Part shown: piece after piece, positions 4,565-23,871 of the stretch
Numbering within the stretch: the first letter of the stretch is position 1
Layout of the letters: each line of letters begins with the position of its first letter
DNA from: an uncultured virus (IMG/VR IMGVR_UViG_3300025382_000006)
Taxonomy: Duplodnaviria; Heunggongvirae; Uroviricota; Caudoviricetes
Direction: 5' to 3' (one strand)
Length of the DNA stretch: 64,000 nucleotides
IMG/VR virus record: IMGVR_UViG_3300025382_000006
Program-made: the position numbers and the translations under genes
The notes under the pieces: model-generated
Database searches by the model: none
Told to the model about the DNA's origin: nothing
What the model saw: only the letters and a program-made list of their open reading frames with translations

Positions 4565-5551
4565 TTAAATGTATCCGAATGGGCTGTTTAGATAACCGCC
4601 TTGAACAAATCTATCAAGACTAAAATTCTTAGCACTATTTCTACTATAGATAGGTGCTAGTGTTACAGTAAAGCTACTTTTAGTTGGTACGTGTGTTACA
4701 CCACCACTAGTTTGCCCTCCTAGGCCTAGCGATCCTGCAACTCCAGCAATATTACCAACTGCTCCAGCTACACTACTTATACCACCAGCTACACTGGACA
4801 GTAGTCCTCCTGGATCTCCAAATCCGCCTATGGTATCTGCAAGGCCGCCTATGCCTCCTGCAATACCTTGTATTTCTCCTGCGGCACTTCCTACTACATT
4901 AACGCCAATGTAATCGCATTGTGAATTTAATGACACTGACATTTGTGTTACTACTACTGGAACATTCTTAAAAACATAGTTACCATACCCGTTTAAGAAT
5001 ACCACAGGAGGAGGATTTCCAGCCTTTGGATCATTTCCAACAAACATTTTGGTAAGGCTACGTAAATAATGAACCGCGGCAATCCAGTATAATCCTTGTG
5101 TAGCATCTTCAACGTTGAATGGTGCAGTAATTGTTATCGATCCAGGGTCGCTACTTTTGAATGATTGAAAGGTATAGTTGTTGTGTACCGTATCAATTTT
5201 GCTATATGAAGCACTACTTTGTATTGTTATTTCTGGAGTATAAGGGAAAATGAGTCCACCAGCGTCTTTTAATGGTTTTAACACAGGGCTACCTTTGAAG
5301 CTAGTCCAGTTGGCCAAACTTAATCTTACACGCCAGTCATTGGCGGCCGCATCGCCCCCAAAACTTGAAACAGCACCTGCAATATCTCCAATTGCTTCTG
5401 CGCCCGCGGCTAGTCCAGTGCCGTTTAACAGGCTATCTGCTAGATTAAAAGAACCCGATAAATCACTAAGCGTATTTAGGCCCGATGACGCGGCTCCAAT
5501 TAAACCAGATGCGCTAGAAATCGATTGAGAAAGACTATCACCCAATGCCAT
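4565..5551 (-). CDS. Baseplate/tail tube initiator-like protein
   Basis: LIFPYTPEI...GNPPPVVFLNGYG...VPVVV motif of tube-initiator-type proteins; Gly-rich flanks; SD AGGAG. Confidence 0.55.
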   Translation of the reverse strand: MALGDSLSQSISSASGLIGAASSGLNTLSDLSGSFNLADSLLNGTGLAAGAEAIGDIAGAVSSFGGDAAANDWRVRLSLANWTSFKGSPVLKPLKDAGGLIFPYTPEITIQSSASYSKIDTVHNNYTFQSFKSSDPGSITITAPFNVEDATQGLYWIAAVHYLRSLTKMFVGNDPKAGNPPPVVFLNGYGNYVFKNVPVVVTQMSVSLNSQCDYIGVNVVGSAAGEIQGIAGGIGGLADTIGGFGDPGGLLSSVAGGISSVAGAVGNIAGVAGSLGLGGQTSGGVTHVPTKSSFTVTLAPIYSRNSAKNFSLDRFVQGGYLNSPFGYI

Positions 5552-5575
5552 AATAAAATACTCCTTTTGATGTAT

Positions 5576-5581
5576 TATTTA
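5576..5581 (-). promoter_or_regulatory. T4-type late promoter (TAAATA) for baseplate cluster
   Basis: TATTTA on + strand, 25 nt upstream of the 5551 start. Confidence 0.65.
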
Positions 5582-5582
5582 T

Positions 5583-5611
5583 TTGACTTTATTATGTGCG
5601 TAGTTTATAAT
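5583..5611 (+). promoter_or_regulatory. Sigma70-type promoter for gp55 operon
   Basis: TTGACT (5583-5588), 17-nt spacer, TATAAT (5606-5611). Confidence 0.85.
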
Positions 5612-5634
5612 AACTTATTAGAGGACTCTACCGG

Positions 5635-6468
5635 ATGACAGCAAAAGTAAATTACTTAAACAACAAGGATATGTTGTTAGAAATACATAGATCAAAAACA
5701 TCATATTGTAGTTTCACCAAACCAGAATATCATCAATATGATTTGATTGTACCCAGTTTAGACAAAATTAATGTTAGAACTATTGCAGAAGCCAAACGTG
5801 TACAGGCTAAACGACTGGGACAACAAGATTTTGAACAAAGAAAGAAAGCTGGCGAAAAGATTAAATTAGCTGATTGTGAAATTGACTATAAAAAGATAGC
5901 AAAGACCAGTGTTGTATTCCGTGTTATGACATTTGATCATATTCCATTAAATGGAACACGTAAGAAAAATCCTAAAAGTCTTGCTGATCATAGAGACAAA
6001 GTTAACTTTCCACCATTTCAACATTGGAAGTTTGATGATAAAGATCCAGAAAAACTCATATGTGTAGGCAAAAGCCATTGGAAAGGTGATTTAGAAAAGG
6101 GCAAGTTTGATAAAGATGCTGGACAAATCACTAATACCCTGGCACGTATGATGATTAAACTATGCGAACGCTATGCTACTCGCGGTAATGTGCGAGGTTA
6201 TACTTATAACGATGAGATGAAAGGTATGGCTATATTGCAATTAACACAGATCGGATTGCAATTTGATGAAAGTAAAAGCGATAACCCCTTTGCTTATTTT
6301 ACTGCGGCAGTAACTAATAGTTTTGTCCGTGTTATCAACACAGAAAAACGTAATCAAAACATACGTGACGATATCTTAGAAATTAATGGTATGAATCCTA
6401 GCTACAGTAGAACTGGTGCTGGAGAACATGCGGCGGCATTGAAACGTTATTCAGAGGACACAGAATGA
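5635..6468 (+). CDS. gp55: Late-transcription sigma factor, gp55-like
   Basis: YLNNKDML N-terminus; NVRGYTYNDEM...FDESKSDNPFAYFT motif; directly upstream of gp47/gp46 as in T4. Confidence 0.9.
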   Translation: MTAKVNYLNNKDMLLEIHRSKTSYCSFTKPEYHQYDLIVPSLDKINVRTIAEAKRVQAKRLGQQDFEQRKKAGEKIKLADCEIDYKKIAKTSVVFRVMTFDHIPLNGTRKKNPKSLADHRDKVNFPPFQHWKFDDKDPEKLICVGKSHWKGDLEKGKFDKDAGQITNTLARMMIKLCERYATRGNVRGYTYNDEMKGMAILQLTQIGLQFDESKSDNPFAYFTAAVTNSFVRVINTEKRNQNIRDDILEINGMNPSYSRTGAGEHAAALKRYSEDTE

Positions 6469-7479
6469 CACAGTTGTTTAAGAAAGTAGCTTGTTTTACG
6501 GACATTCATTTCGGATTAAAGTCTAACAGTAGTGTACACAACCAAGACTGTGAAGACTTTGTAGATTGGTACATTGCAAAAGCAAAGGAGGAAGGTTGTG
6601 ATACAGGTATCTTTATGGGCGATTGGCATCATAATCGTAATAGCCTTAACATTACTACAATGGATTATAGCCTTAGGGCCCTGGAAAAGCTGGGGCAGGC
6701 GTTTGATAACTTCTATTTCTTTCCTGGTAATCATGATTTATATTACAAGGATAAGCGGGACATACACAGTGTGGAATTTGGAAAGTATATTCCTGGTGTC
6801 ACTGTCGTACACGAGCCTACTACTATTGGAGATGTCACCCTTTGTCCGTGGTTGGTTGGCGAAGAGTGGAGATCCATTAGCAAAAAAGGCGGAAAATACA
6901 TCTTCGGACACTTCGAACTCCCCAGCTTCTTCATGAATGCAATGGGTGCAAATGCCGGATCACGGAGAGATTCAGTTAGATAGTTTCAAACAATATGAGC
7001 TAGGATTTAGCGGACACTTTCATAAACGTCAACAAAAAGGCAATATGATCTATATTGGCAATGCATTTCCGCACAATTATGCAGATGCATGGGACGACGA
7101 GCGTGGAATGATGACTTTAGAATGGGGAGGAACTCCAGAATATCATAGTTGGCCAGGACAACCTACCTTTAGAACTATTAAATTAAGTCAACTAATTGAT
7201 GAAGCGGACAAAATAATATTGCCCAAGCAACATTTACGTGTTACACTAGACATAGATATCACATATGAAGAAGCTAGTTTTATCAAAGAAAAGTTTGTAG
7301 CAGACTATGACATTAGAGAACTTACACTTATTGCTGAAAAGAAAGATGTTGAAATCAATACCAACATAGATGTACAAGCATTTGAAAGTGTAGATCAAAT
7401 TGTATCTAGTCAAATTGTCAATATTGACAGTGATACTTACGACAAAAATACATTACTAGCAATTTATAACAGCCTATGA
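6465..7479 (+). CDS. gp47: Recombination endonuclease gp47 (Mre11/SbcD-like), split by a +1 frameshift near 6944-6946
   Basis: DIHFG, GDWHH, GNHD, GHFE in ORF 6465-6983 and SGHFH in ORF 6937-7479; removing one G of GGG restores a 337-aa frame. Confidence 0.85.
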
Positions 7480-9257
7480 CAATAAAATTAAAAGAATTAA
7501 CAGTTAAAAACTTTATGAGTGTGGGTAATCAAACCCAGGCTGTAAACTTTGCACAAGAAAATTTAACACTTGTACTAGGCGAAAACTTAGATCAAGGCGG
7601 CGACGACAGCGGAAGCCGTAATGGTACGGGTAAGACTACTATTGTCAACGCATTGAGTTTTGCTTTATTTGGTAATGCACTTACTAATATCAAGAAAGAC
7701 AACTTAATCAACAAGATTAACAACAAAAACATGTTGGTTACTCTGTCTTTTGAAAAAGACGGAATAGATTATCGTATTGAACGTGGACGCAAACCCACTG
7801 TCATGCAATTTTTTGTCAACGATCAAGCACAAGATGTTGAAGAAACAGATGACAGTCAGGGCGACATGCGTGAAACTCAGAAGGATTTAGACGATCTTCT
7901 GGGCATGAGTCACGACATGTTCAAGCACATTGTTGCATTAAACACATATACAGAACCGTTTTTAAGTATGCGGGCCAATGATCAGCGAGTGATCATTGAA
8001 CAACTTCTAGGTATTACTCTGTTAAGTGAGAAAGCTGAAGCTCTTAAAGAACAAATTAGACAAACTAAAGACAATATTACACAAGAATCAGCCAACATAG
8101 AAGCTATCAAACGTAGCAATGAAAACATTCAAAAGAGTATTGATGGCATTCTAACTAGGCAAAGTGCTTGGCGCAATCAACATGCCACCGAAGTTGAAAA
8201 GATTGGCAGGGCTATTGTAGAACTTGAGGGCGTAGATATTGAAGCTGAGCTTGCGAAGCATACGGAGCTCAAGGAGTTTGCTGAGAAATCAGCAAAGCTA
8301 AAAAGCCTAGAAAAGGAACAAGCTACGTTAAATAGCGCGATAGCGCAAGCGGAGCGAAGCGTCACAAAGTATGACGGCGAGCTCGCCAAGTTGGCTAACA
8401 AGACCTGTCACGCTTGTGAACAAACTCTCCATGACCATAAACATGAAGAAATGACTGCTACGGCACAACAGCACCTTGATGAGGCCCGAAAATATTTGGA
8501 CAAGGTCACAAAAGATTTCAACAAAATACAAAAAGAAATTGCCGCCATTGGAGACGTTCCTCGCAAGCCCACTACCTACTATGACAGCGTTGAACAGGCG
8601 CTTAAACATCAAAACAATCTTAAAACTCTTGAAACACAGCTACAGATCAAGGCGGGCGAGTCCGATCCTTACCAGGAACAGATTGATGAATTGACCAATA
8701 CTGCCATACAAGAAGTCACTTGGGACACAGTCAACACGCTTACACAGCTGAAAGATCATCAAGAGTTCTTGCTTAAACTACTAACCAGCAAGGATAGCTT
8801 TATTCGTAAGAAGATTATTGATCAAAACTTGGCCTATCTAAACAATCGATTGACTTATTATCTTGATAAGATGGGCTTGCCACATACTGTCATGTTCCAA
8901 AACGACCTAAGTGTGCTGATTACTCAGCTGGGTCAGGACCTAGACTTTGATAACTTGAGCCGTGGCGAGCGTAATCGCTTGATACTGTCCCTGTCATGGG
9001 CCTTTAGAGATGTGTGGGAAAGTCTATATCAGCCCATTAACTTGCTGTTTGTGGACGAGCTTATTGACAACGGACTCGATGCGTCGGGTGTTGAAGGCGC
9101 ACTGGCAGTGCTTAAAAAGATGTCGCGTGAACGTAAAAAGAATATTTTCTTGATATCGCACCGTGATGAACTGATTGGCCGTGTCAACAACGTGCTCAAA
9201 GTTATCAAAGAGAATGGCTATACTTCGTATGCCAATGATCTAGAAGTAAATGAGTAA
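7476..9257 (+). CDS. gp46: Recombination ATPase gp46 (Rad50/SbcC-like)
   Basis: Walker A NGTGKTT, zinc hook CHAC, signature LSRGE, Walker B FVDE, SH switch. Confidence 0.95.
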   Translation: MTIKLKELTVKNFMSVGNQTQAVNFAQENLTLVLGENLDQGGDDSGSRNGTGKTTIVNALSFALFGNALTNIKKDNLINKINNKNMLVTLSFEKDGIDYRIERGRKPTVMQFFVNDQAQDVEETDDSQGDMRETQKDLDDLLGMSHDMFKHIVALNTYTEPFLSMRANDQRVIIEQLLGITLLSEKAEALKEQIRQTKDNITQESANIEAIKRSNENIQKSIDGILTRQSAWRNQHATEVEKIGRAIVELEGVDIEAELAKHTELKEFAEKSAKLKSLEKEQATLNSAIAQAERSVTKYDGELAKLANKTCHACEQTLHDHKHEEMTATAQQHLDEARKYLDKVTKDFNKIQKEIAAIGDVPRKPTTYYDSVEQALKHQNNLKTLETQLQIKAGESDPYQEQIDELTNTAIQEVTWDTVNTLTQLKDHQEFLLKLLTSKDSFIRKKIIDQNLAYLNNRLTYYLDKMGLPHTVMFQNDLSVLITQLGQDLDFDNLSRGERNRLILSLSWAFRDVWESLYQPINLLFVDELIDNGLDASGVEGALAVLKKMSRERKKNIFLISHRDELIGRVNNVLKVIKENGYTSYANDLEVNE

Positions 9258-9519
9258 GCACGTTGAGCCCAGTCCCTATCAAAATGAAGAGTCGCATGAG
9301 CAACTCATGGCGGCCTTTAGAGAATACTTTAAGGCCAATCAGGATTGGCAACGCAAAGGCACAAGACGAGCAGGCGAAAACATGCGCTACTGGCTAGCGC
9401 AGATCCGTATTATAGCACGACAACGTAGAGAACACGTACAGCAGTATCGTGTGTATCTAGATCAATCTAAGGCTGAACGCAAGGCAAACCAAAATGACAA
9501 GGACTCTGGGACAGAATAA
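9250..9519 (+). CDS. Hypothetical protein, helical
   Basis: 89-aa ORF overlapping gp46 stop. Confidence 0.7.
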   Translation: MSKHVEPSPYQNEESHEQLMAAFREYFKANQDWQRKGTRRAGENMRYWLAQIRIIARQRREHVQQYRVYLDQSKAERKANQNDKDSGTE

Positions 9520-9531
9520 ACTACATAGTTA

Positions 9532-9969
9532 ATGTCCTGGTACTATGAAAATCAATTAATAACAGAATTGCCCGAAACCTGTGTTGGGTTTGTATATCTT
9601 ATAACAAATACAGTCACAGGGCGTATGTACATAGGCAAAAAACTAGCTAAATTTTCTAAAACCACATACAAAGTAGTTAAATTAAAGAACGGCACTAAGA
9701 AAAAAAAGAAAATCCGTGGCAAAATTGATTCAGACTGGAGAGACTATTATGGATCTTCAGACGAACTACTCAAGGATGTCGCGCAGTTAGGTCAAGAAAA
9801 CTTTCGGCGAGAAATATTATTTTACTGTACCAGTAAAGCCGAAACGTCATACATAGAGGCACGAGAACAATTTACACGCAGGGTATTGGAATCTGACGAC
9901 TATTACAATGGTCAGATATCTGTTCGTGTCCACGGCTCCCACATCAAAGGCAAACAGTTAAACGGTTAA
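9532..9969 (+). CDS. Stand-alone GIY-YIG nuclease
   Basis: GFVYLITN...MYIGKK, YYGSS, conserved E and YYN; 145 aa; Lys-rich insertion. Confidence 0.85.
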   Translation: MSWYYENQLITELPETCVGFVYLITNTVTGRMYIGKKLAKFSKTTYKVVKLKNGTKKKKKIRGKIDSDWRDYYGSSDELLKDVAQLGQENFRREILFYCTSKAETSYIEAREQFTRRVLESDDYYNGQISVRVHGSHIKGKQLNG

Positions 9970-10402
9970 AAGCTAGCGCAGGCCAACATCATGCGCCCAT
10001 GACAACTCGATAATAAGAGGGACGGAATTCTCCAGCCGTAGGAGTACTCAGCAACTATCCTTGACAGGACGTGGATCAGATATGCCTTCATACAACTGGT
10101 TTTGCTGTTTAGAAAGATTTCAAAAGGCTAAAAGAGGGGTTGTAGCCCCACGGTTTGTTGTGTGTTAGCGTATGCAACAAGCCCGCCGTCATATAAAGAC
10201 AGCATGAGTAGGTACCGGATGACCGCCTACGTTCTAGTGCTAACGCTAAGTGATATTGTTCGACTCAGATAATGTCCATTCGCTTTGCCCGCTAGGGCAA
10301 AGTGTGACTGAACGATCTAGATAATATCTTAACGCTTCGCGTTTAATTGTGAAGCTAGAATAGTTCGAGCGAAAGCGAAGAACAGAAGAACGCAGTTCTT
10401 CT
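9970..10402 (+). ncRNA. Candidate large structured RNA
   Basis: No ORF; more than 10 stems and two possible pseudoknots; G-U pairs favour the + strand; ends in a terminator-like hairpin. Confidence 0.6.
10384..10402. terminator. Hairpin between convergent units, likely terminator
   Basis: AGAAGAAC-GCA-GTTCTTCT immediately before the convergent stop at 10403-10405. Confidence 0.5.
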
Positions 10403-10642
10403 TTACAGTAATGGCATTCGCGTGTCTTGAGTGGCTTTGATATTGTCGTTGATAATGTTGTATATCATTTCACGATCTTCGTAACTGTAGGTCTGTAGTA
10501 GATCATTAACAGTTACACCCCCTCGCATATACCAACTGATTCTAAATAAGTCTTGTTTGAATTCTTTAACTTGATTGTCTAGCCTAATTAATTTCTGTTC
10601 AATCTCTTGGGGTGAGAGACTAATTAGGCTTGAACGAAAAAA
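10403..10642 (-). CDS. -1 frame extension of the gp26-like gene (gp51/GT-like segment); absent from ORF track
   Basis: Open frame FFRSSLISLSPQEIEQKLIRLDNQVKEFKQDLFRISWYMRGGV...RMPLL*, entered at slippery T TTT TTC. Confidence 0.7.
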   Translation of the reverse strand, partial: FFRSSLISLSPQEIEQKLIRLDNQVKEFKQDLFRISWYMRGGVTVNDLLQTYSYEDREMIYNIINDNIKATQDTRMPLL

Positions 10643-11448
10643 CTGCTTTGATCTAGATCCACAGACAGTTTGACTTCGGTTCCGCAGTTGTCACACTTGA
10701 CAGGAAACAAGGGCATGCTAAAGCGATCTGCATTGCCCTTGTTGTGATCTCTGATTTGATCAAACACATGTTTTTCGCAGTTGTCAATCCACTCTTCTAG
10801 GAATCTGCGTTCAGTTACCACTTGATTGTCAATCTCAACGCTTTCCACTACCATTTTGAATATTTCATTGTTGACCTGTGCCAGTTCAACAAACAGTCTA
10901 TTCAATACAGTTTGACGTTGGTCAGCATCTTCAATGGCTTCCACTTGTGAAATCTGTTGTTGTATCTTGAAGTTTTTAATACTGACGTCTGTGCTTTCTT
11001 TATAGTTCAAAGGGCGCAGTTTAACTGCCAGCTCGCCCACAATCAATTGATTGTCAAACTGTGTGGTCATGTAGTATTCAATGATTTTATTGAGTTCCAA
11101 GTCATATTCGTTTACAGTACCGCAGTTGTCACACTTGTGACTAACGCCCAGCTCGGGACCAAATGTGGCAATGCGTATGGCTGCCATGATAATGGGCAGG
11201 TCAATGTTGCTGACATCCCATGGATCTTTAATAGTGGGACAGCAACTGGCCACAATGGCTGCCGTACTTTCTCCTGTCAACAGGCTGTCGGGCGTTTTAA
11301 TTATAATTTCGTCCATGCCAGTCATGCCATAGACAGGAATGTGTTCAGGATCGCCCTGAATAGCACCAGGCTGATTGAAAACTCCTCCGCTGGGCAGGCG
11401 AATAAAAATTTTGGGTTGTCTAAAATACTTTTGTAAGGGGTTATTCAT
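10624..11448 (-). CDS. Baseplate hub assembly chaperone, gp26-like
   Basis: RLPSGG, AIRIATFG and two CxxC pairs (CDNC twice), as in T4-like gp26/gp51-type proteins. Confidence 0.7.
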   Translation of the reverse strand: MNNPLQKYFRQPKIFIRLPSGGVFNQPGAIQGDPEHIPVYGMTGMDEIIIKTPDSLLTGESTAAIVASCCPTIKDPWDVSNIDLPIIMAAIRIATFGPELGVSHKCDNCGTVNEYDLELNKIIEYYMTTQFDNQLIVGELAVKLRPLNYKESTDVSIKNFKIQQQISQVEAIEDADQRQTVLNRLFVELAQVNNEIFKMVVESVEIDNQVVTERRFLEEWIDNCEKHVFDQIRDHNKGNADRFSMPLFPVKCDNCGTEVKLSVDLDQSSFFVQA

Positions 11449-11536: not shown

Positions 11537-12649
11537 ATGAAAGTCTACGAAATTATATCTGAAACTTGGTACAATCCCTTGACTTGGGGACAGTCAGCCG
11601 CTCCAACAGTAAATCCTGTGACCAAGGCAGTGGCCGCTGTTACGCCTAAAGAAATGGCGGCGGCCTTGAAAAACATCAAAAAAGATCCAGCAGCCTACTT
11701 AAAAGTAATTAACAAGCGTATTGAAGCAGGCGAGTTTGCCAAGGACATTGAAGCGGCCAAGAGCGCAGGCACTAGTCGCATGGGCATGACTTGGTGGGGA
11801 GTGTTCAAGGCCATTGGTTTTGCCACTGCCTGTTATGAACTGTGGGCACACTTGGCCGCAGTGGAAGCAGACTATCGTGCAGGACAGCGTGGACAGAAAA
11901 ATCCAGATCCAACAGGACTGGTCAAAGACATGCCTGGCGATGCTTCCATGGAATTCAACGAAGGCGAATACAAAGAATGGCGCAGATTCTATATTGGTCT
12001 ATGGGAAGCACAAGTGGCACTGCCTTTGATAGTTGGCATGATCAAAAAGATCAGCAATGTGTTCATGCTCACTAGAGCCATAGTGGGCATACTCAGTGTT
12101 GCTGGCAGCTTGGCCACATTTGGCGGAGCATTTCTAGGATTTGTCAGTTTTGAAGTATTGACACAGGCAGTGCAGTGGTGGTTAATGAGTCCACAAGGAC
12201 AAGAATGGGCTGTGAAAAATTTATTTGGTCCGTTAACACTTGCTGGTGAAGTGGGTGAAGACGCTTGGCTAATATTCTACAAAGGTGTAAGTGGATTTAA
12301 GAAAGCCATGAAGAGTGGCGACATGTCAGATCTAGCCAAGGGCGACAACTACTATGATGTTACCAAAGCTGAAAGAGATAAAGATCCTAGGCTGGCCAAA
12401 CGAGATGCCGAACTGGGCAATGCAGATAATGTACAATCTGGCACTAACTCTGTGGTAGTGGGCGGAGTGCGCATTACAGACAAGGATGGCTATCTCTTGC
12501 CCTATGCAGACAGCTGGGGACAGGTCAAGTATGCTATACAATATGATCCCAAAGAAAAAGCCAAGTATGATGCTGTTGTGGCCAAGGGCAAACCACCAGC
12601 AACTGCCGCAGAAAAACAACCCGGATATGGAAGTTTTGACAGCATGTAG
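11537..12649 (+). CDS. Hypothetical virion (internal?) protein with hydrophobic segments
   Basis: 370 aa; starts MKVYEIISE; TAAATA at 11525-11530. Confidence 0.6.
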   Translation: MKVYEIISETWYNPLTWGQSAAPTVNPVTKAVAAVTPKEMAAALKNIKKDPAAYLKVINKRIEAGEFAKDIEAAKSAGTSRMGMTWWGVFKAIGFATACYELWAHLAAVEADYRAGQRGQKNPDPTGLVKDMPGDASMEFNEGEYKEWRRFYIGLWEAQVALPLIVGMIKKISNVFMLTRAIVGILSVAGSLATFGGAFLGFVSFEVLTQAVQWWLMSPQGQEWAVKNLFGPLTLAGEVGEDAWLIFYKGVSGFKKAMKSGDMSDLAKGDNYYDVTKAERDKDPRLAKRDAELGNADNVQSGTNSVVVGGVRITDKDGYLLPYADSWGQVKYAIQYDPKEKAKYDAVVAKGKPPATAAEKQPGYGSFDSM

Positions 12650-12714: not shown

Positions 12715-15000
12715 ATGGCCGACACTCCACCACCAATTGACGAACGCGGTGCCAAGCTGATTGCTGATGCTATTGCCAAGAACCAAGGTGGTAACTCGGC
12801 TCCTAAAAGCACAGGCCCAGTAACAACTGGATTTGAAAAAGCAGACTCTTATGCTGGATCAGTTGGTGACAAACTAAAAGAAAGATTAGGTGTAGGAGCG
12901 GACGCGGCCGGTAAAGGTCTGAGTGATCTAAAGGCTGCCACTCAAGAAAACATAGGTGCTTTTCAGAATCTAAGTAAATCTGGTGCAAATTTCAGCAACG
13001 ACCTAGTGGGCATGCGAGCCGCTCAAGCAGGCAGTCGAGTCAGTCTAGGTGAATTTACAGATACCATACAAAAAAACAATACAGCGTTTGTTGGCTTAGG
13101 TGGTAACGTCAGTAAGGGAGCAGAAAACTTTGCTAAACTTACAAAAGAAATGTATGATAACAATGCCGTTGAGACAGATAGACTGCGCTCAATGGGTATT
13201 ACCAACAAAGAACTTAACGATACTCTAGCATTACAAATCAGTTTCCAACGAGGAAGTTTCAAAGATAATAAAGAAGGTCACGAAGAAAGTATCAAAGCCG
13301 CTACGGAACTAGCGGATCAAATGAATAAAACTGCTATCTTGACAGGTAAGAGTCGTCAAGAACAAGAAGATGCTTTGAAGAAAGCACAAGCAGACTCGAT
13401 GGTTGAAGCCAAGTTTAGATTACTGGGCGCACAACAAGGTCCTGAAGCAGAAGCCAAAGCACGTAAAGAATTCGCTATTCAAATGCAACAGGCTGAAGCA
13501 CGTGGTCAAGGTCAGTTCTTCAAAGAAGTATTTGCTACAGGTCATGCCATCAGTCAAGAAGCCGCAACTCAAAGTGCAATGTTGGGCAAACAAGCTATTG
13601 CTACAGCTGAACAAGCTAAGGCCACAGCAAGAGGCGACCACGAAGCCGCTAGTAAATTTAATGAACAAGCCCGTGTTGAACAACTAGCCAACAGTAAAAA
13701 TACTTCCATAATGACTGCGGCCCTGTATGGTGATGTAGGCGGAGCATACAACAAACAAGCACAGCAACAATTAAAAAACGATCAAGCAGTATACGATGCA
13801 CGTAAGAAATTAGAACAAGATGCTAATTTTGCTAAACTAAGTGATCAACAAAAACTAGCCGCAATTGACAAACAAGTTGCTGAAGATGCTGCCGCCAAAA
13901 AGAAAGATGGTACAGATAAAGAAGGCGCCGCAACTACTAAAGCCGCATTAAACATTGAACAACGCATGAATGATGCTGGCTCGGCAGTAATGAACAAGTT
14001 GGTAAATCCGCTAAATGAAAAAGCAGGACCTTCTATTAATAAATTTGCAGATACTGCACTAGGAGCACAAACTAAACTCAGCAATGGACAAGTAGTAACT
14101 AAACCTCAAGCATTTGAACTAGGAGTTACACAAGGATATAAAGGCTACGATGGTAAAAGTCCTACACCTACAGATTTAGGCAGTAAAGCATTGAGTACAG
14201 TAGGAGCTGTAGGCAAAGGAGCAGAAACTGTTGCTAAAGGTGTAGGCAAGGTTGTAGATTTTGGTAAAGAAGCAATCAATGGCACACAACCTAAAGAACA
14301 ACGAGACGGTGGTACACTGGAAAAAACTGGAAGTCCTGTAGAACCTGCTGACGTGATTGCAAAAATTCACAAAGGTGAAGCTGTGCTAAAACCCGAAGCT
14401 GTGCAAAACATGGGTCTTAAGATGTCTGAAATGAGTAAAATGGTTCAGACTACTATTAGCAGTGCAGGCGGACCAGGAGGCAAAGATCCAAAAGAAATAA
14501 TGGAGGAAGCCAAACGTAGGTTTGAAAGCCTTAAGATAGAAGATATACCTAAACTAGATGCAGGAGGTGGATTAGAAGCTGCCAAGAAAAAAGCAAGTGA
14601 GGAAAGCAATAAATTAGTTAAAGCATCCGGCGCCGACAAAATAACAGAAGCATTACCAAAAGGCATAGAAGGATTTGGCGGAATAAAATTACCAAACTTT
14701 GATGAAATTGAAAAGACAGCAACTAAAATTAGTCCTCCCAAAGTTGACAACAAAGCTGATGCAGAAACTAAGGCCAAAGCTGATGCAGAAGCCAAAGCTA
14801 AGACTGCTAAAGAACAGCCTGCAGATCAAAAAACTGCGCCTGCTGTTGGAGAAATATCCATGAAAGATCTCAATGCCAGCTTACATCAGTTAAATATAAC
14901 TATGAAGCAAGTGCTGACTTATACACAACAGACTGCTACGGCAGCCCAAGCCCAAGTTAAGGCCACTAAGAGTTTGTCAGGCAACAAGTTTGCCACCTAA
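12715..15000 (+). CDS. Tape-measure-like / baseplate hub protein, putative
   Basis: 761 aa Ala/Lys/Gln-rich helical protein close to the chaperone gene. Confidence 0.5.
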   Translation: MADTPPPIDERGAKLIADAIAKNQGGNSAPKSTGPVTTGFEKADSYAGSVGDKLKERLGVGADAAGKGLSDLKAATQENIGAFQNLSKSGANFSNDLVGMRAAQAGSRVSLGEFTDTIQKNNTAFVGLGGNVSKGAENFAKLTKEMYDNNAVETDRLRSMGITNKELNDTLALQISFQRGSFKDNKEGHEESIKAATELADQMNKTAILTGKSRQEQEDALKKAQADSMVEAKFRLLGAQQGPEAEAKARKEFAIQMQQAEARGQGQFFKEVFATGHAISQEAATQSAMLGKQAIATAEQAKATARGDHEAASKFNEQARVEQLANSKNTSIMTAALYGDVGGAYNKQAQQQLKNDQAVYDARKKLEQDANFAKLSDQQKLAAIDKQVAEDAAAKKKDGTDKEGAATTKAALNIEQRMNDAGSAVMNKLVNPLNEKAGPSINKFADTALGAQTKLSNGQVVTKPQAFELGVTQGYKGYDGKSPTPTDLGSKALSTVGAVGKGAETVAKGVGKVVDFGKEAINGTQPKEQRDGGTLEKTGSPVEPADVIAKIHKGEAVLKPEAVQNMGLKMSEMSKMVQTTISSAGGPGGKDPKEIMEEAKRRFESLKIEDIPKLDAGGGLEAAKKKASEESNKLVKASGADKITEALPKGIEGFGGIKLPNFDEIEKTATKISPPKVDNKADAETKAKADAEAKAKTAKEQPADQKTAPAVGEISMKDLNASLHQLNITMKQVLTYTQQTATAAQAQVKATKSLSGNKFAT

Positions 15001-22011: not shown

Positions 22012-22101
22012 ATACAATGTACGACTCACATGGGGTGAGTTTTATGCAGAAATCCAACTGCGTACGGCCTAGAACGCCGTTTTTCTACAGGAGAAAACAA
22101 A

Positions 22102-23871
22102 ATGGGACGTCCCTTAAATAAAAAATATATTGGTAAACGTAATACAGGTGCCGCAGGCACATTTGGTAACACAAACTTGTTGCCAACAGACTACGACTTA
22201 GGTGGTCTAAAAGCTCTTAACGCAAACGTTACAACAGCTGGTTCTTATACTCAATCGCAGGCTGCCGCTCTAACAACAACATTTCCAAAGCCAGCACTAT
22301 CTGGCGAAGGTGCTGTAACAGCAGTTGGTACACCAACATTTACTATTTTAACTGGTACAACTAACGCAGTTGGTTCACAAACAACAGCTTATGCCCCAAC
22401 AGCTGGTAGCATTTCGGTTACGTATGGTGGTGTTACAAGCACATATACTCCAACACTAACAACTTACAGTGGTTTTAGCATTGCTAGTATTACATCGGGC
22501 GGTGTAATGACATTATCTGGTGGTACAATTACAGCTTTGGCTGGAACAAGCGTTATATTTAACGCTGGTTTGACTGGCTCAACTGGTCTAACAGCTGGCT
22601 CAACATATTACATTACAACAAGTGTAACATCAAGTTCAACAGTGACTCTAAGTGCATCTTACGGTGGCGCCGCAATTAGTATTGCTGGTGGTACACCAAC
22701 AGGTACTCTAACACTAACAATTGGTACAACTTATGCATCAGTAGCTTCTGTAGCAGTAGTATCGGGCGGTACATACGCTCAGTCAGGTGTTACATCTGGT
22801 CTAGCTGCCGCTCAAGCAACTACAGCCGCATTTGGTTCTGGTTTGACAATCGCCCCAGCAACATTTGGTGTTAATGGTGTGTCATATTCTAATGCTGGTA
22901 ACGGCTATATCAACACAGTTCCAGTAACTCCTGGTATTAGTGCTACAACTGCAACAACTATTGCTAGTGGTACTTATGGTACAATCACAGTTGGTGCTAC
23001 ACCTTTCAACTCAATCACATTGGGTACAGCACAATCTGCTAATACATTCTATGTTGGTCAAGTTGTTTCGTTTACTGGCACACCAGGCGGCAACACAGCA
23101 TTCATCGACAGCGGCTTTGCATCTGGCAACAGTTATTTGGTCAGTGCTACTAATGGTACAAGTACTTTAACATTGACAAAACTTGACGGTACAGCACTAT
23201 CAGGTGGTGCCGCAGGTGCAGTAACTGGTTTATCAATTGTATTGTACAAAGAAACAGTAAGTTCCACAGACCAATTAGTTCCAGGTATGAAGGTTGTTAC
23301 AACTGGTTCAGGCGGTAGCTTGACGGCTGGTACATACTACATTATTGCAGTTAACGGATCAACTGAAATTGTTCTAAGTAGCTCAGTAGGTGGTAGTGCC
23401 GCAGTGGTAACTTCAGCATCAAGTTTGACAATTACTACAGTAGTAAGTGGTAACACAGCAATCACATTTGGTTCAGGTGTCGCAGTTGCAACAATGACAT
23501 TTGCCGCACAGGTAACAACTGGTTATACTGGTAACTATGCCGCTATCCAAGCACAGTCATTAATTACAACAGGCGGTGTTGTTCGTCAAGATACAGACAT
23601 TATCAAACAAGAAAACACACAACGTTTCCGTGTTGAAAGTTCTGACGGTGTATTCTACGCTAAATTAGTTAACACTTTCCCAACAGTTGGTGGAACAATG
23701 GCTATCAACGCTACTGATTCCGCTGGTGGTACATATTGGGTAACTAAGATTACTAATCGTCGTTGCCGTGTAACTCGTAATACAGGTACACAGTTTACAG
23801 ATGGATCAACAGTTAACTGGACATTTGGTGCACCAACAGCCAACGTTTCTGTTAAGATCGACAACGCTTAA
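22102..23871 (+). CDS. Thr/Gly-rich virion structural protein
   Basis: 589 aa; own TAAATA promoter, structured leader and terminator. Confidence 0.65.
   Translation: MGRPLNKKYIGKRNTGAAGTFGNTNLLPTDYDLGGLKALNANVTTAGSYTQSQAAALTTTFPKPALSGEGAVTAVGTPTFTILTGTTNAVGSQTTAYAPTAGSISVTYGGVTSTYTPTLTTYSGFSIASITSGGVMTLSGGTITALAGTSVIFNAGLTGSTGLTAGSTYYITTSVTSSSTVTLSASYGGAAISIAGGTPTGTLTLTIGTTYASVASVAVVSGGTYAQSGVTSGLAAAQATTAAFGSGLTIAPATFGVNGVSYSNAGNGYINTVPVTPGISATTATTIASGTYGTITVGATPFNSITLGTAQSANTFYVGQVVSFTGTPGGNTAFIDSGFASGNSYLVSATNGTSTLTLTKLDGTALSGGAAGAVTGLSIVLYKETVSSTDQLVPGMKVVTTGSGGSLTAGTYYIIAVNGSTEIVLSSSVGGSAAVVTSASSLTITTVVSGNTAITFGSGVAVATMTFAAQVTTGYTGNYAAIQAQSLITTGGVVRQDTDIIKQENTQRFRVESSDGVFYAKLVNTFPTVGGTMAINATDSAGGTYWVTKITNRRCRVTRNTGTQFTDGSTVNWTFGAPTANVSVKIDNA

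Follow-up and report, generated by a model that had tools for sequence, protein, structure and literature searches.

The closest described relative of the RNA considered here is Polynucleobacter-1 (RF01718), which has stood in Rfam since 2010 as a 140-nucleotide (nt) motif of unknown function. In the table of Weinberg et al. 2010 (PMC2864571), it is entered as a likely RNA of Burkholderiales and fresh water/estuary, with 16 sequences, and is rated probably cis-regulatory ("cis-reg: y"). We analyzed a stretch of 64,000 nt from an uncultured virus (IMG/VR record IMGVR_UViG_3300025382_000006; this whole stretch is called the window below), in which a 433-nt gap directly follows the gene of a 145-amino acid (aa) GIY-YIG nuclease. 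The initial annotation of the window had taken the pair for a candidate ribonucleoprotein system, in which a large + strand RNA with pseudoknots, encoded next to the nuclease, may serve the minimal enzyme. The comparative data show that the gap encodes a real, elaborately folded + strand structured RNA; this part of the interpretation and, in these phages, the genetic tie to the nuclease gene were upheld, and the ribonucleoprotein was not supported. What the gap holds is a large RNA of mobile elements that is for the most part undescribed and extends well beyond its 5′ third, which was already known: Polynucleobacter-1 now becomes the 5′ domain of an RNA of 430-560 nt.

The likeness to Polynucleobacter-1 extends over the whole 141-position model, and fresh water and Burkholderiales recur in both; the differences are that the catalogued ~140 nt make up only the 5′ domain here and that the 3′ core is more widely conserved, being found with other 5′ domains as well. 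With GOLLD, ROOL and HEARO (the omega RNA of IscB) the RNA shares a length of several hundred nt, pseudoknotted helices and carriage by phage or mobile DNA, but matches none of them by sequence or model. HEARO, the partner of an HNH/RuvC nuclease, carries a long guide, whereas here the neighbour is a non-obligatory GIY-YIG enzyme and the variable parts of the RNA are two identical segments of 7-8 nt; nor are this nuclease and this RNA always found together, as would be expected of an OMEGA/HEARO-like system. GOLLD, ROOL and OLE are described as forming homo-oligomers (PMC12286853).

As for the enzyme, it shares the GIY-YIG catalytic domain with I-TevI and the Seg endonucleases (PF19835, with a weak fold match to I-TevI at E 0.19) but lacks a C-terminal DNA-binding module and adds a lysine-rich beta-hairpin insertion. 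Like T4 EndoII, this nuclease is a short, stand-alone GIY-YIG enzyme, and its cyanophage homologues adjoin nrd genes; by sequence, however, it matches no solved EndoII chain at E <= 1. In contrast to homing endonucleases, its presence is not sporadic (74/76 and 75/78 RNA loci, see below). In three bacterial loci, the RNA gene has a tyrosine integrase gene directly on its 3′ side, as at tRNA and transfer-messenger RNA (tmRNA) integration sites; however, the RNA is neither a tRNA nor a tmRNA and is accessory, occurring in ~3% of the Burkholderiales genomes sampled. As far as our literature searches show, the full architecture, with its two pseudoknots, twin segments, alternative 5′ domains and phage and island contexts, is apparently undescribed.

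The structured RNA behind the nuclease gene

The nuclease gene, the gap and the elements of the RNA are as follows (percentages, pair counts and twin matches for positions 10111-10402 refer to alignment A1, described below).

9532..9969, + strand: gene of the 145-aa GIY-YIG nuclease
9970-10402: gap of 433 nt without a conserved open reading frame (ORF)
9971..10110, + strand: RNA domain 1, the Polynucleobacter-1 motif (RF01718), whole model 1-141 matched
10111..10135, + strand: conserved A-rich linker (AAGGC.AAAAGA), near-invariant columns in A1
10136..10149, + strand: hairpin Ha, GGGG/CCCC, 75-83% paired despite indels, double changes at every pair
10152..10183, + strand: 12-bp hairpin Hb, with loop 10164-10171 in pseudoknot 1; double changes at 12/12 pairs, 90.6% paired
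10165..10249, + strand: pseudoknot 1, 10165-10171 with 10243-10249; 96.3% paired, double changes at 7/7 pairs
10188..10223, + strand: pseudoknot 2, 10188-10192 with 10219-10223; 97.9% paired, UA/CG 41:35 and GC/AU 47:26 at two pairs
10202..10240, + strand: stem Hd, outer part 10202-05/10237-40 and inner part 10208-12/10226-30; 98-99% paired, outer pairs 4/4 covarying
10264..10275, + strand: twin segment r1, CTCAGATAATGT, single-stranded, matching r2 in 76/76
10283..10302, + strand: hairpin Hf, CTTTGCCC/GGGCAAAG; compensatory variants visible, counts lowered by alignment shifts
10316..10327, + strand: twin segment r2, TCTAGATAATAT, single-stranded, matching r1 in 76/76
10331..10343, + strand: UUC-triloop hairpin Hg; stem variants CGC/GCG, CTGC/GCAG, GTGC/GCAC and ATGC/GCAT, counts blurred by indels
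10363..10383, + strand: hairpin Hh, with an outer stem, a GA/GAA internal loop, a 2-bp stem and a GNRA loop; covariation
10384..10402, + strand: terminal hairpin Hi, with which the conserved RNA ends; 95.6% paired, 8/8 pairs covarying

No other non-coding stretch of the window is as long as the gap, which begins at the nuclease stop codon; both points were annotated initially. Its far side is bounded by a conserved 41-aa ORF on the opposite strand (10403-10528, -). A competing "gap" of 700 nt proved to be a 274-aa ORF. In many relatives, the DNA 3′ of the nuclease gene matches the whole gap at ~66-88% identity. Since no ORF is shared in this region among the nuclease-bearing relatives and all nuclease homologues end at 140-159 aa, the gap is not a decayed protein domain.

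Positions 9971-10110 (+) matched RF01718 with 90.9 bits (gathering score 37, E 4e-18) over model positions 1-141 of 141. The 5′ third of the RNA thus belongs to a described family, a result that had been named beforehand as speaking against the ribonucleoprotein. For 10111-10402, a permissive scan of 9400-10800 retrieved no Rfam family at E <= 10; a tracrRNA row for this part was dismissed as a chance match (E 0.56, 23 bits vs. a cut-off of 70). RF01718 describes only the 5′ ~140 nt, and a further 290 nt are conserved and structured. This 3′ part is conserved in >100 phage contigs, and a profile built from 10111-10402 gave 177 matches (E <= 1e-5) among all loci collected. The core also stands behind other 5′ domains, including in RF01718-negative loci: RF01718 was present in only 33/50 nuclease-bearing records because the other loci have a different ~200-nt 5′ domain before the same core.

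Pairing was assessed on relatives, 60-76 of which were covered by the stem-by-stem tests, against controls in which the 3′ partner was slid along the alignment and against 500 shuffles. The Rfam-type stems of domain 1 (28 pairs, 60 relatives) are 92% paired vs. 37-43% when slid, with double changes at 19/28 pairs. For the core, 76 non-redundant full-length copies were aligned by MAFFT (alignment A1), and 64 pairs in 13 helices were defined by hand, since RNAalifold on this alignment gave only 39 pairs and one spurious GCC/GGC helix. These 64 pairs (10111-10402) are 87.6% paired vs. 38-42% slid, and their covariation score is 0.471 vs. 0.07-0.09. The covariation among homologues that the initial annotation had proposed as a check on the fold is strong: in both RNA parts, none of the 500 shuffles reached the observed value. 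Single-sequence folding beats shuffles only modestly (z -2.8 on the + strand and -2.1 on the - strand), so the case is built on comparative data.

Most stems read from the single sequence at the outset recur with compensatory changes across relatives. This holds for GCGCA/TGCGC, CAGCAA/TTGCTG and GATCAG/CTGGTT, for GGGG/CCCC, the 12-bp stem 10152-10183 and the outer and inner stems of 10202-10240, and for CTTTGCCC/GGGCAAAG; the proposed long-range pseudoknot TTAGCGT/ACGCTAA is 96% paired and has double changes at 7/7 pairs. The partner of pseudoknot 2 (10219-10223) sits inside the loop of the 10208-10230 hairpin. Pair 10366-10380 of hairpin Hh is UA in 39 sequences and CG in 28; hairpin Hg is missing from more distant relatives. 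The UUC-triloop and GNRA hairpins as well as the compensatory changes read on the + strand, which agrees with the strand assigned originally. The TCCT/AGGA stem is conserved, with hardly any variation among relatives. At 10022-10044, CTCC/GGAG is supported as a plain hairpin, but not the H-type pseudoknot it was thought to form with ACGG/CCGT; the latter pairing (69% paired) was equalled by 290/500 shuffles. The outer helix GATATTGTT/GATAATATC did not hold up either, being 72% paired, a level reached by 59/500 shuffles, and an alternative helix, 10255-61/10310-16, was tested and found unsupported.

The segments r1 and r2 are identical at their four variable positions in 76/76 phage RNAs, which carry 10 different core 7-mers, so that the segments are alike within each RNA and differ between lineages. 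Their relation is one of identity, not complementarity. The arrangement is also present in variant phage subtypes, and 11/11 full-length bacterial homologues (L275, L282, L214, L278, L279, L260, L323, L325, L326, L327 and L328) have it as GAACUC-N and GAAUCU-N, with five other cores; there, the twins are identical over the first 6 nt in 11/11 and over 7 nt in 10/11. No RNA column of the 76-sequence alignment covaries with r1/r2 in the manner of a pairing partner, no exact reverse complement of the twin 8-mer occurs within the phage loci (+/-1.5-2.5 kb), and no complementary partner was found in the bacterial loci. A peak of wobble complementarity just upstream was traced to GTTTGAA, an invariant sequence in domain 1 that shows no covariation. 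The variable segments measure only 7-8 nt, and 8-mers are too short for a genome-wide target search. Most simply, the two segments would each contact a partner of one and the same kind.

Two runs recorded as RNA hold diverged relatives of the nuclease gene, and in one of them, a 248-nt contig covers 10283-10394 and continues on both sides; these are contigs only, which show no ends, strand or level, and DNA may be in the libraries. No conserved upstream motif that could be a promoter for the RNA was seen in the 10 loci viewed, and promoter-like sites are at chance level. The terminal hairpin has no clear U-tract: TTTACAG comes after it in the window, and mixed sequence in relatives. It was not flagged by a terminator scan. 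Most relatives have an ATAAATA motif behind the terminal hairpin and then a + strand gene homologous to the window ORF at 11537. We take the motif to be close to the T4 late-promoter consensus. Since this motif and a + strand gene come after the terminal hairpin, the RNA is a unit separate from what follows.

Distribution of the RNA and of the nuclease

The 145-aa protein matches PF19835 (SegE_GIY-YIG; E 2.5e-33, 115.3 bits vs. a cut-off of 25, profile 1-123 of 123) and phrog_447 (E 2.3e-37). The active site of GIY-YIG enzymes is made up of the GIY and YIG tyrosines, an arginine, a glutamate and an asparagine; Y22, Y33/G35, R93, E109/E112 and N126 are invariant across 21 diverse homologues. 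The homologues have their stop codon after 140-159 aa in 78/78 loci and no separate DNA-binding domain. An AlphaFold (AF2) model with a pLDDT (predicted local distance difference test) score of 82 comprises a single domain, in which a lysine-rich stretch forms a long beta-hairpin (residues 40-66). The top Foldseek matches were the I-TevI catalytic domain (E 0.19, probability 0.97) and a GIY-YIG-type restriction enzyme, all of them weak (E 0.19-0.6); the search for solved structures related by sequence gave nothing meaningful at E <= 1, and no solved EndoII chain.

Linkage was counted from three starting points. The sample seeded with domain 1 comprised 80 loci and, after removal of one chance hit and one locus at a contig end, 78. 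A GIY-YIG gene lies upstream on the same strand in 75 of these, adjacent in 72 and with an extra ORF in between in 3; two of the remaining loci have a PF24608 PD-(D/E)xK gene instead and one (L161) has neither. Seeding with the core, independently of domain 1, gave 76 assessable loci, some on contigs shared with the first sample, with 67 adjacent GIY-YIG genes and 7 separated by an insert (74/76), one PD-(D/E)xK gene and one locus without a nuclease. A nuclease-seeded search of viral contigs found 587 relatives, of which 80 loci were retained; the RNA core lies downstream in 64/71 assessable loci, and 7/71 are without it. The co-occurrence is tight in this phage clade, but it is not obligatory, as each partner occurs without the other. 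A PD-(D/E)xK gene stands before the RNA in L101, L104 and L485, and the RNAs of L161 and L467 are not preceded by any nuclease gene; for a candidate MazG-like assignment of the ORF before the L467 RNA, there is no Pfam support. In L102, L145, L137, L021, L053 and others, an ORF of 257-283 aa without a Pfam or PHROG family lies between the nuclease gene and the RNA.

The nuclease family is also found in 494 cultured phage records by tblastn, always at <60% identity and at one place per record. The carriers are mostly T4-like cyanophages, and the gene is near-universal in cultured Kyanoviridae. It lies just 3′ of nrdA/nrdB in S-ShM2 and 3′ of a ribonucleotide reductase gene in Methylophilales phage Melnitz; both genomes were searched in full and contain neither RF01718 nor the RNA core. 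In PA5oct, which by gp46 is the closest cultured relative (49%), this region lacks both the GIY gene and the RNA; its gp46-hub region does contain a PD-(D/E)xK gene. Since PA5oct has that gene there without the RNA, the PD-(D/E)xK "replacement" looks native rather than like a swapped homing gene. In cyanophage records, the small GIY-YIG gene is often annotated "NAD synthetase" (e.g., NC_015281.1, 163368-163817), apparently a misannotation that has been passed on between records.

Prokaryote genomes were scanned with a pattern, which yielded mostly chance hits, and matches were checked by profile and tblastn. Four of the 120 loci are phage contigs binned into metagenome-assembled genomes, and another 8, out of 14 checked, are Burkholderiales bacterial contigs with RF01718. 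The bacterial carriers include a Limnohabitans isolate and Comamonadaceae and Burkholderiaceae assemblies. Their RNAs consist of domain 1 and a conserved extension of ~330-420 nt, which includes the twin segments and, like the phage RNA, closes with the GA/GAA-loop hairpin and the terminal hairpin. No GIY-YIG gene lies near the RNA in the bacterial loci. Since only 4/151 sampled Burkholderiales genomes, the centre genome included, score above the cut-off (~3%), the bacterial RNA is accessory and not a core host RNA. The RNA family is carried by mobile elements, namely by freshwater jumbo myophages and by Burkholderiales genomic islands. The architecture of 430-560 nt with two pseudoknots, the carriage by phages and islands alike and the twin segments jointly offer a concrete handle for experiments, and the RNA is a candidate for the class of large ornate RNAs.

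In the islands, a DUF6641 gene (PF20346, phrog_31551) lies divergently upstream of the RNA in L236, L282, L278, L260 and both G054 copies, and the other bacterial loci have a divergent ORF of similar size at its place. Three of these genes map as follows.

L282, 2285-2776, - strand: DUF6641 gene
L323, 6473-6913: DUF6641 gene
L323, 15002-15463: DUF6641 gene

The bacterial RNA and DUF6641 may form a small RNA-protein module of islands. No paper in the literature searched names the family, and as a shared phage partner, DUF6641 was not found in five phage records, a weak negative, since a control also went undetected. The DUF6641 gene is followed by an ORF of 112-173 aa without an assigned family. 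The Comamonadaceae contig L323 (G054 contig 15) carries two RNA copies (~5491-5902 and 14348-14783, - strand), which share 80% identity and are separated by 8.9 kb; around these duplicated RNA-DUF6641 modules lie an AAA ATPase gene and two genes of the integrase family. The pattern of L236 (Limnohabitans) is identical to that of L214 through domain 1 and the next 40 nt and then diverges completely, without twins, which suggests a truncated copy or a recombination junction. Another RNA copy in that genome, L328, is full.

Explanations for the RNA and its neighbour

The stretch 9971-10402 is read as one + strand multi-domain non-coding RNA of ~430 nt, and we think it fairly probable that this RNA stands alone and acts in trans, with the nuclease as a neighbour. 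From 5′ to 3′, the RNA consists of domain 1, a compact two-pseudoknot core, the two identical single-stranded segments of 7-8 nt on a conserved scaffold, the GA/GAA-loop hairpin with its GNRA cap and the terminal hairpin. It would be transcribed by read-through from the upstream gene, end at the terminal hairpin and act by itself as a structured RNA, its two exposed segments binding two copies of one partner, which may be a nucleic acid recognized by pairing or a dimeric protein. The GIY-YIG protein would then be a near-core small phage nuclease that works without the RNA and, in this lineage, probably belongs to the same transcription unit.

Several points weigh against this interpretation. 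The association in the phage clade is very tight both ways (75/78, 74/76 and 64/71), and only a few bases separate the nuclease stop codon from the start of the RNA; as no promoter of its own was found, a functional tie to the nuclease through co-expression may exist after all. Transcription, ends and strand of the RNA are predicted from sequence. The central domain of the bacterial RNAs is too diverged for the phage profile, and their homology to the phage RNA is suggested by domain 1, twins and 3′ modules shared in one alignment. A partner of the twin segments was found neither among the RNA columns nor in the phage or bacterial loci.

Tight phage linkage (75/78 and 74/76) would also be expected if the RNA scaffolded or guided the adjacent minimal nuclease, GIY-YIG in most loci and PD-(D/E)xK in a few, with the twins as guide-like segments. 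The lack of a DNA-binding domain (140-159 aa in 78/78), the variable twins on a conserved scaffold and the different nuclease family at the same place in L101, L104 and L485 fit this idea. It has to contend with the bacterial homologues that lack a GIY-YIG gene, the RNAs of L161 and L467 without a nuclease gene in front, the 7/71 GIY loci without the RNA, and the 494 cultured records with the nuclease, two genomes of which were checked and have no RNA; the PD-(D/E)xK gene is native to the region in PA5oct, which is without the RNA, the variable cores are only 7-8 nt long with no matching target nearby, and no GIY-YIG RNA-guided system was found in the literature searched. Since both the RNA and the nuclease are also found on their own, the data give no support to a nuclease-RNA machine, and the 494 records, the two RNA-less genomes and the 7/71 loci indicate that a short GIY-YIG enzyme without a DNA-binding domain needs no such RNA in general. 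An obligatory nuclease-RNA particle is unlikely, and we consider guidance or scaffolding of the nuclease by the RNA unlikely as well; the mere proximity of a minimal GIY-YIG enzyme and a large RNA does not argue for an RNA-guided nuclease. A cis-acting mRNA element, either a structured 3′ untranslated region acting in the stabilisation, termination or regulation of the nuclease mRNA or else the next gene's long leader, seems quite unlikely to us. It would account for the position of the RNA directly after a + strand stop codon in nearly all loci, for the hairpin at its 3′ end and for the same-strand integrase gene that comes next in three bacterial loci, and Polynucleobacter-1 is listed as "cis-reg: y" in the table cited above (PMC2864571). 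However, ~430-560 nt with two pseudoknots and specificity-like twins exceed the needs of a stabiliser or terminator, the terminal hairpin has no U-tract, the upstream gene varies (GIY, PD-(D/E)xK, an unrelated ORF or none), and the downstream gene varies too or is convergent, as in the window.

Conserved RNA genes are typical homing targets, as with the T4 seg genes, and the nuclease family is named after SegE; a free-standing homing endonuclease might therefore target the conserved RNA gene and spread with it by co-conversion. The GIY protein is 70-92% identical in relatives where gp46 drops to 49% and the hub protein to 23-58%, as such spread would predict. We nevertheless judge homing to be very unlikely, since the nuclease is present in ~97% of RNA loci and not sporadically, occurs in one copy per genome, is near-universal in cultured Kyanoviridae at a different conserved place and lacks a DNA-binding module, and the alternative PD-(D/E)xK gene is native to this region in PA5oct. 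A slimmer chance still is given to a programmable recognition RNA of mobile elements, whose rigid double-pseudoknot scaffold would display the twins for pairing with two copies or both arms of a short nucleic-acid site and so direct the neighbouring DNA enzyme, GIY-YIG or PD-(D/E)xK in jumbo phages and a tyrosine integrase in islands. Direct repeats that evolve in concert are the usual pattern of protein-binding iterons, and the two repeats here do evolve in this way; the region could on that ground be a DNA-level element such as an origin of replication bearing iteron-like direct repeats or a region of R-loop priming. Against this, Watson-Crick and G-U pairs are preserved by compensatory changes in 13 helices, the two pseudoknots included, and the GNRA and UUC loops read only on the + strand. 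The compensatory changes in the 13 helices therefore point to selection on RNA and not on duplex DNA, and a DNA-level element is highly improbable.

Neighbouring genes and a second RNA motif in the window

The genes around the nuclease gene and the RNA are the following.

6937-7479: gp47-like recombination nuclease subunit gene
7476-9257: gp46-like recombination nuclease subunit gene
9250..9519, + strand: orf89, small and rich in arginine, upstream of the nuclease gene; not assigned to any Pfam or PHROG family
10403..10528, - strand: orf41, a conserved convergent small gene of 41 aa that bounds the gap
10624-11448, - strand: T4-type baseplate hub gene

By tblastn, relatives of orf89 occupy the same place in many loci, and relatives of orf41 adjoin the hub gene in many loci. 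Blastn of the region against cultured phages gave no match. The nearest cultured phages by gp46 are PA5oct-like jumbo Pseudomonas phages (49% identity), and related contigs reach ~350 kb, which together indicate that the source is a freshwater jumbo myophage with T4-type modules. No tRNA or tmRNA genes were found in the window by ARAGORN and the Rfam models.

In L001, L005, L009-L017 and other relatives, the ATAAATA motif and then a gene starting MKVYEIISE lie just 3′ of the terminal hairpin. The homologue of this gene in the window (11537-12649) lies past the inverted hub gene, which indicates a rearrangement of the region. The window holds another RNA motif known to Rfam, freshwater-2 (RF02980), at 22024-22104 (+), where it scores 71.9 bits against a gathering score of 49.9 and sits in a 90-nt intergenic gap.

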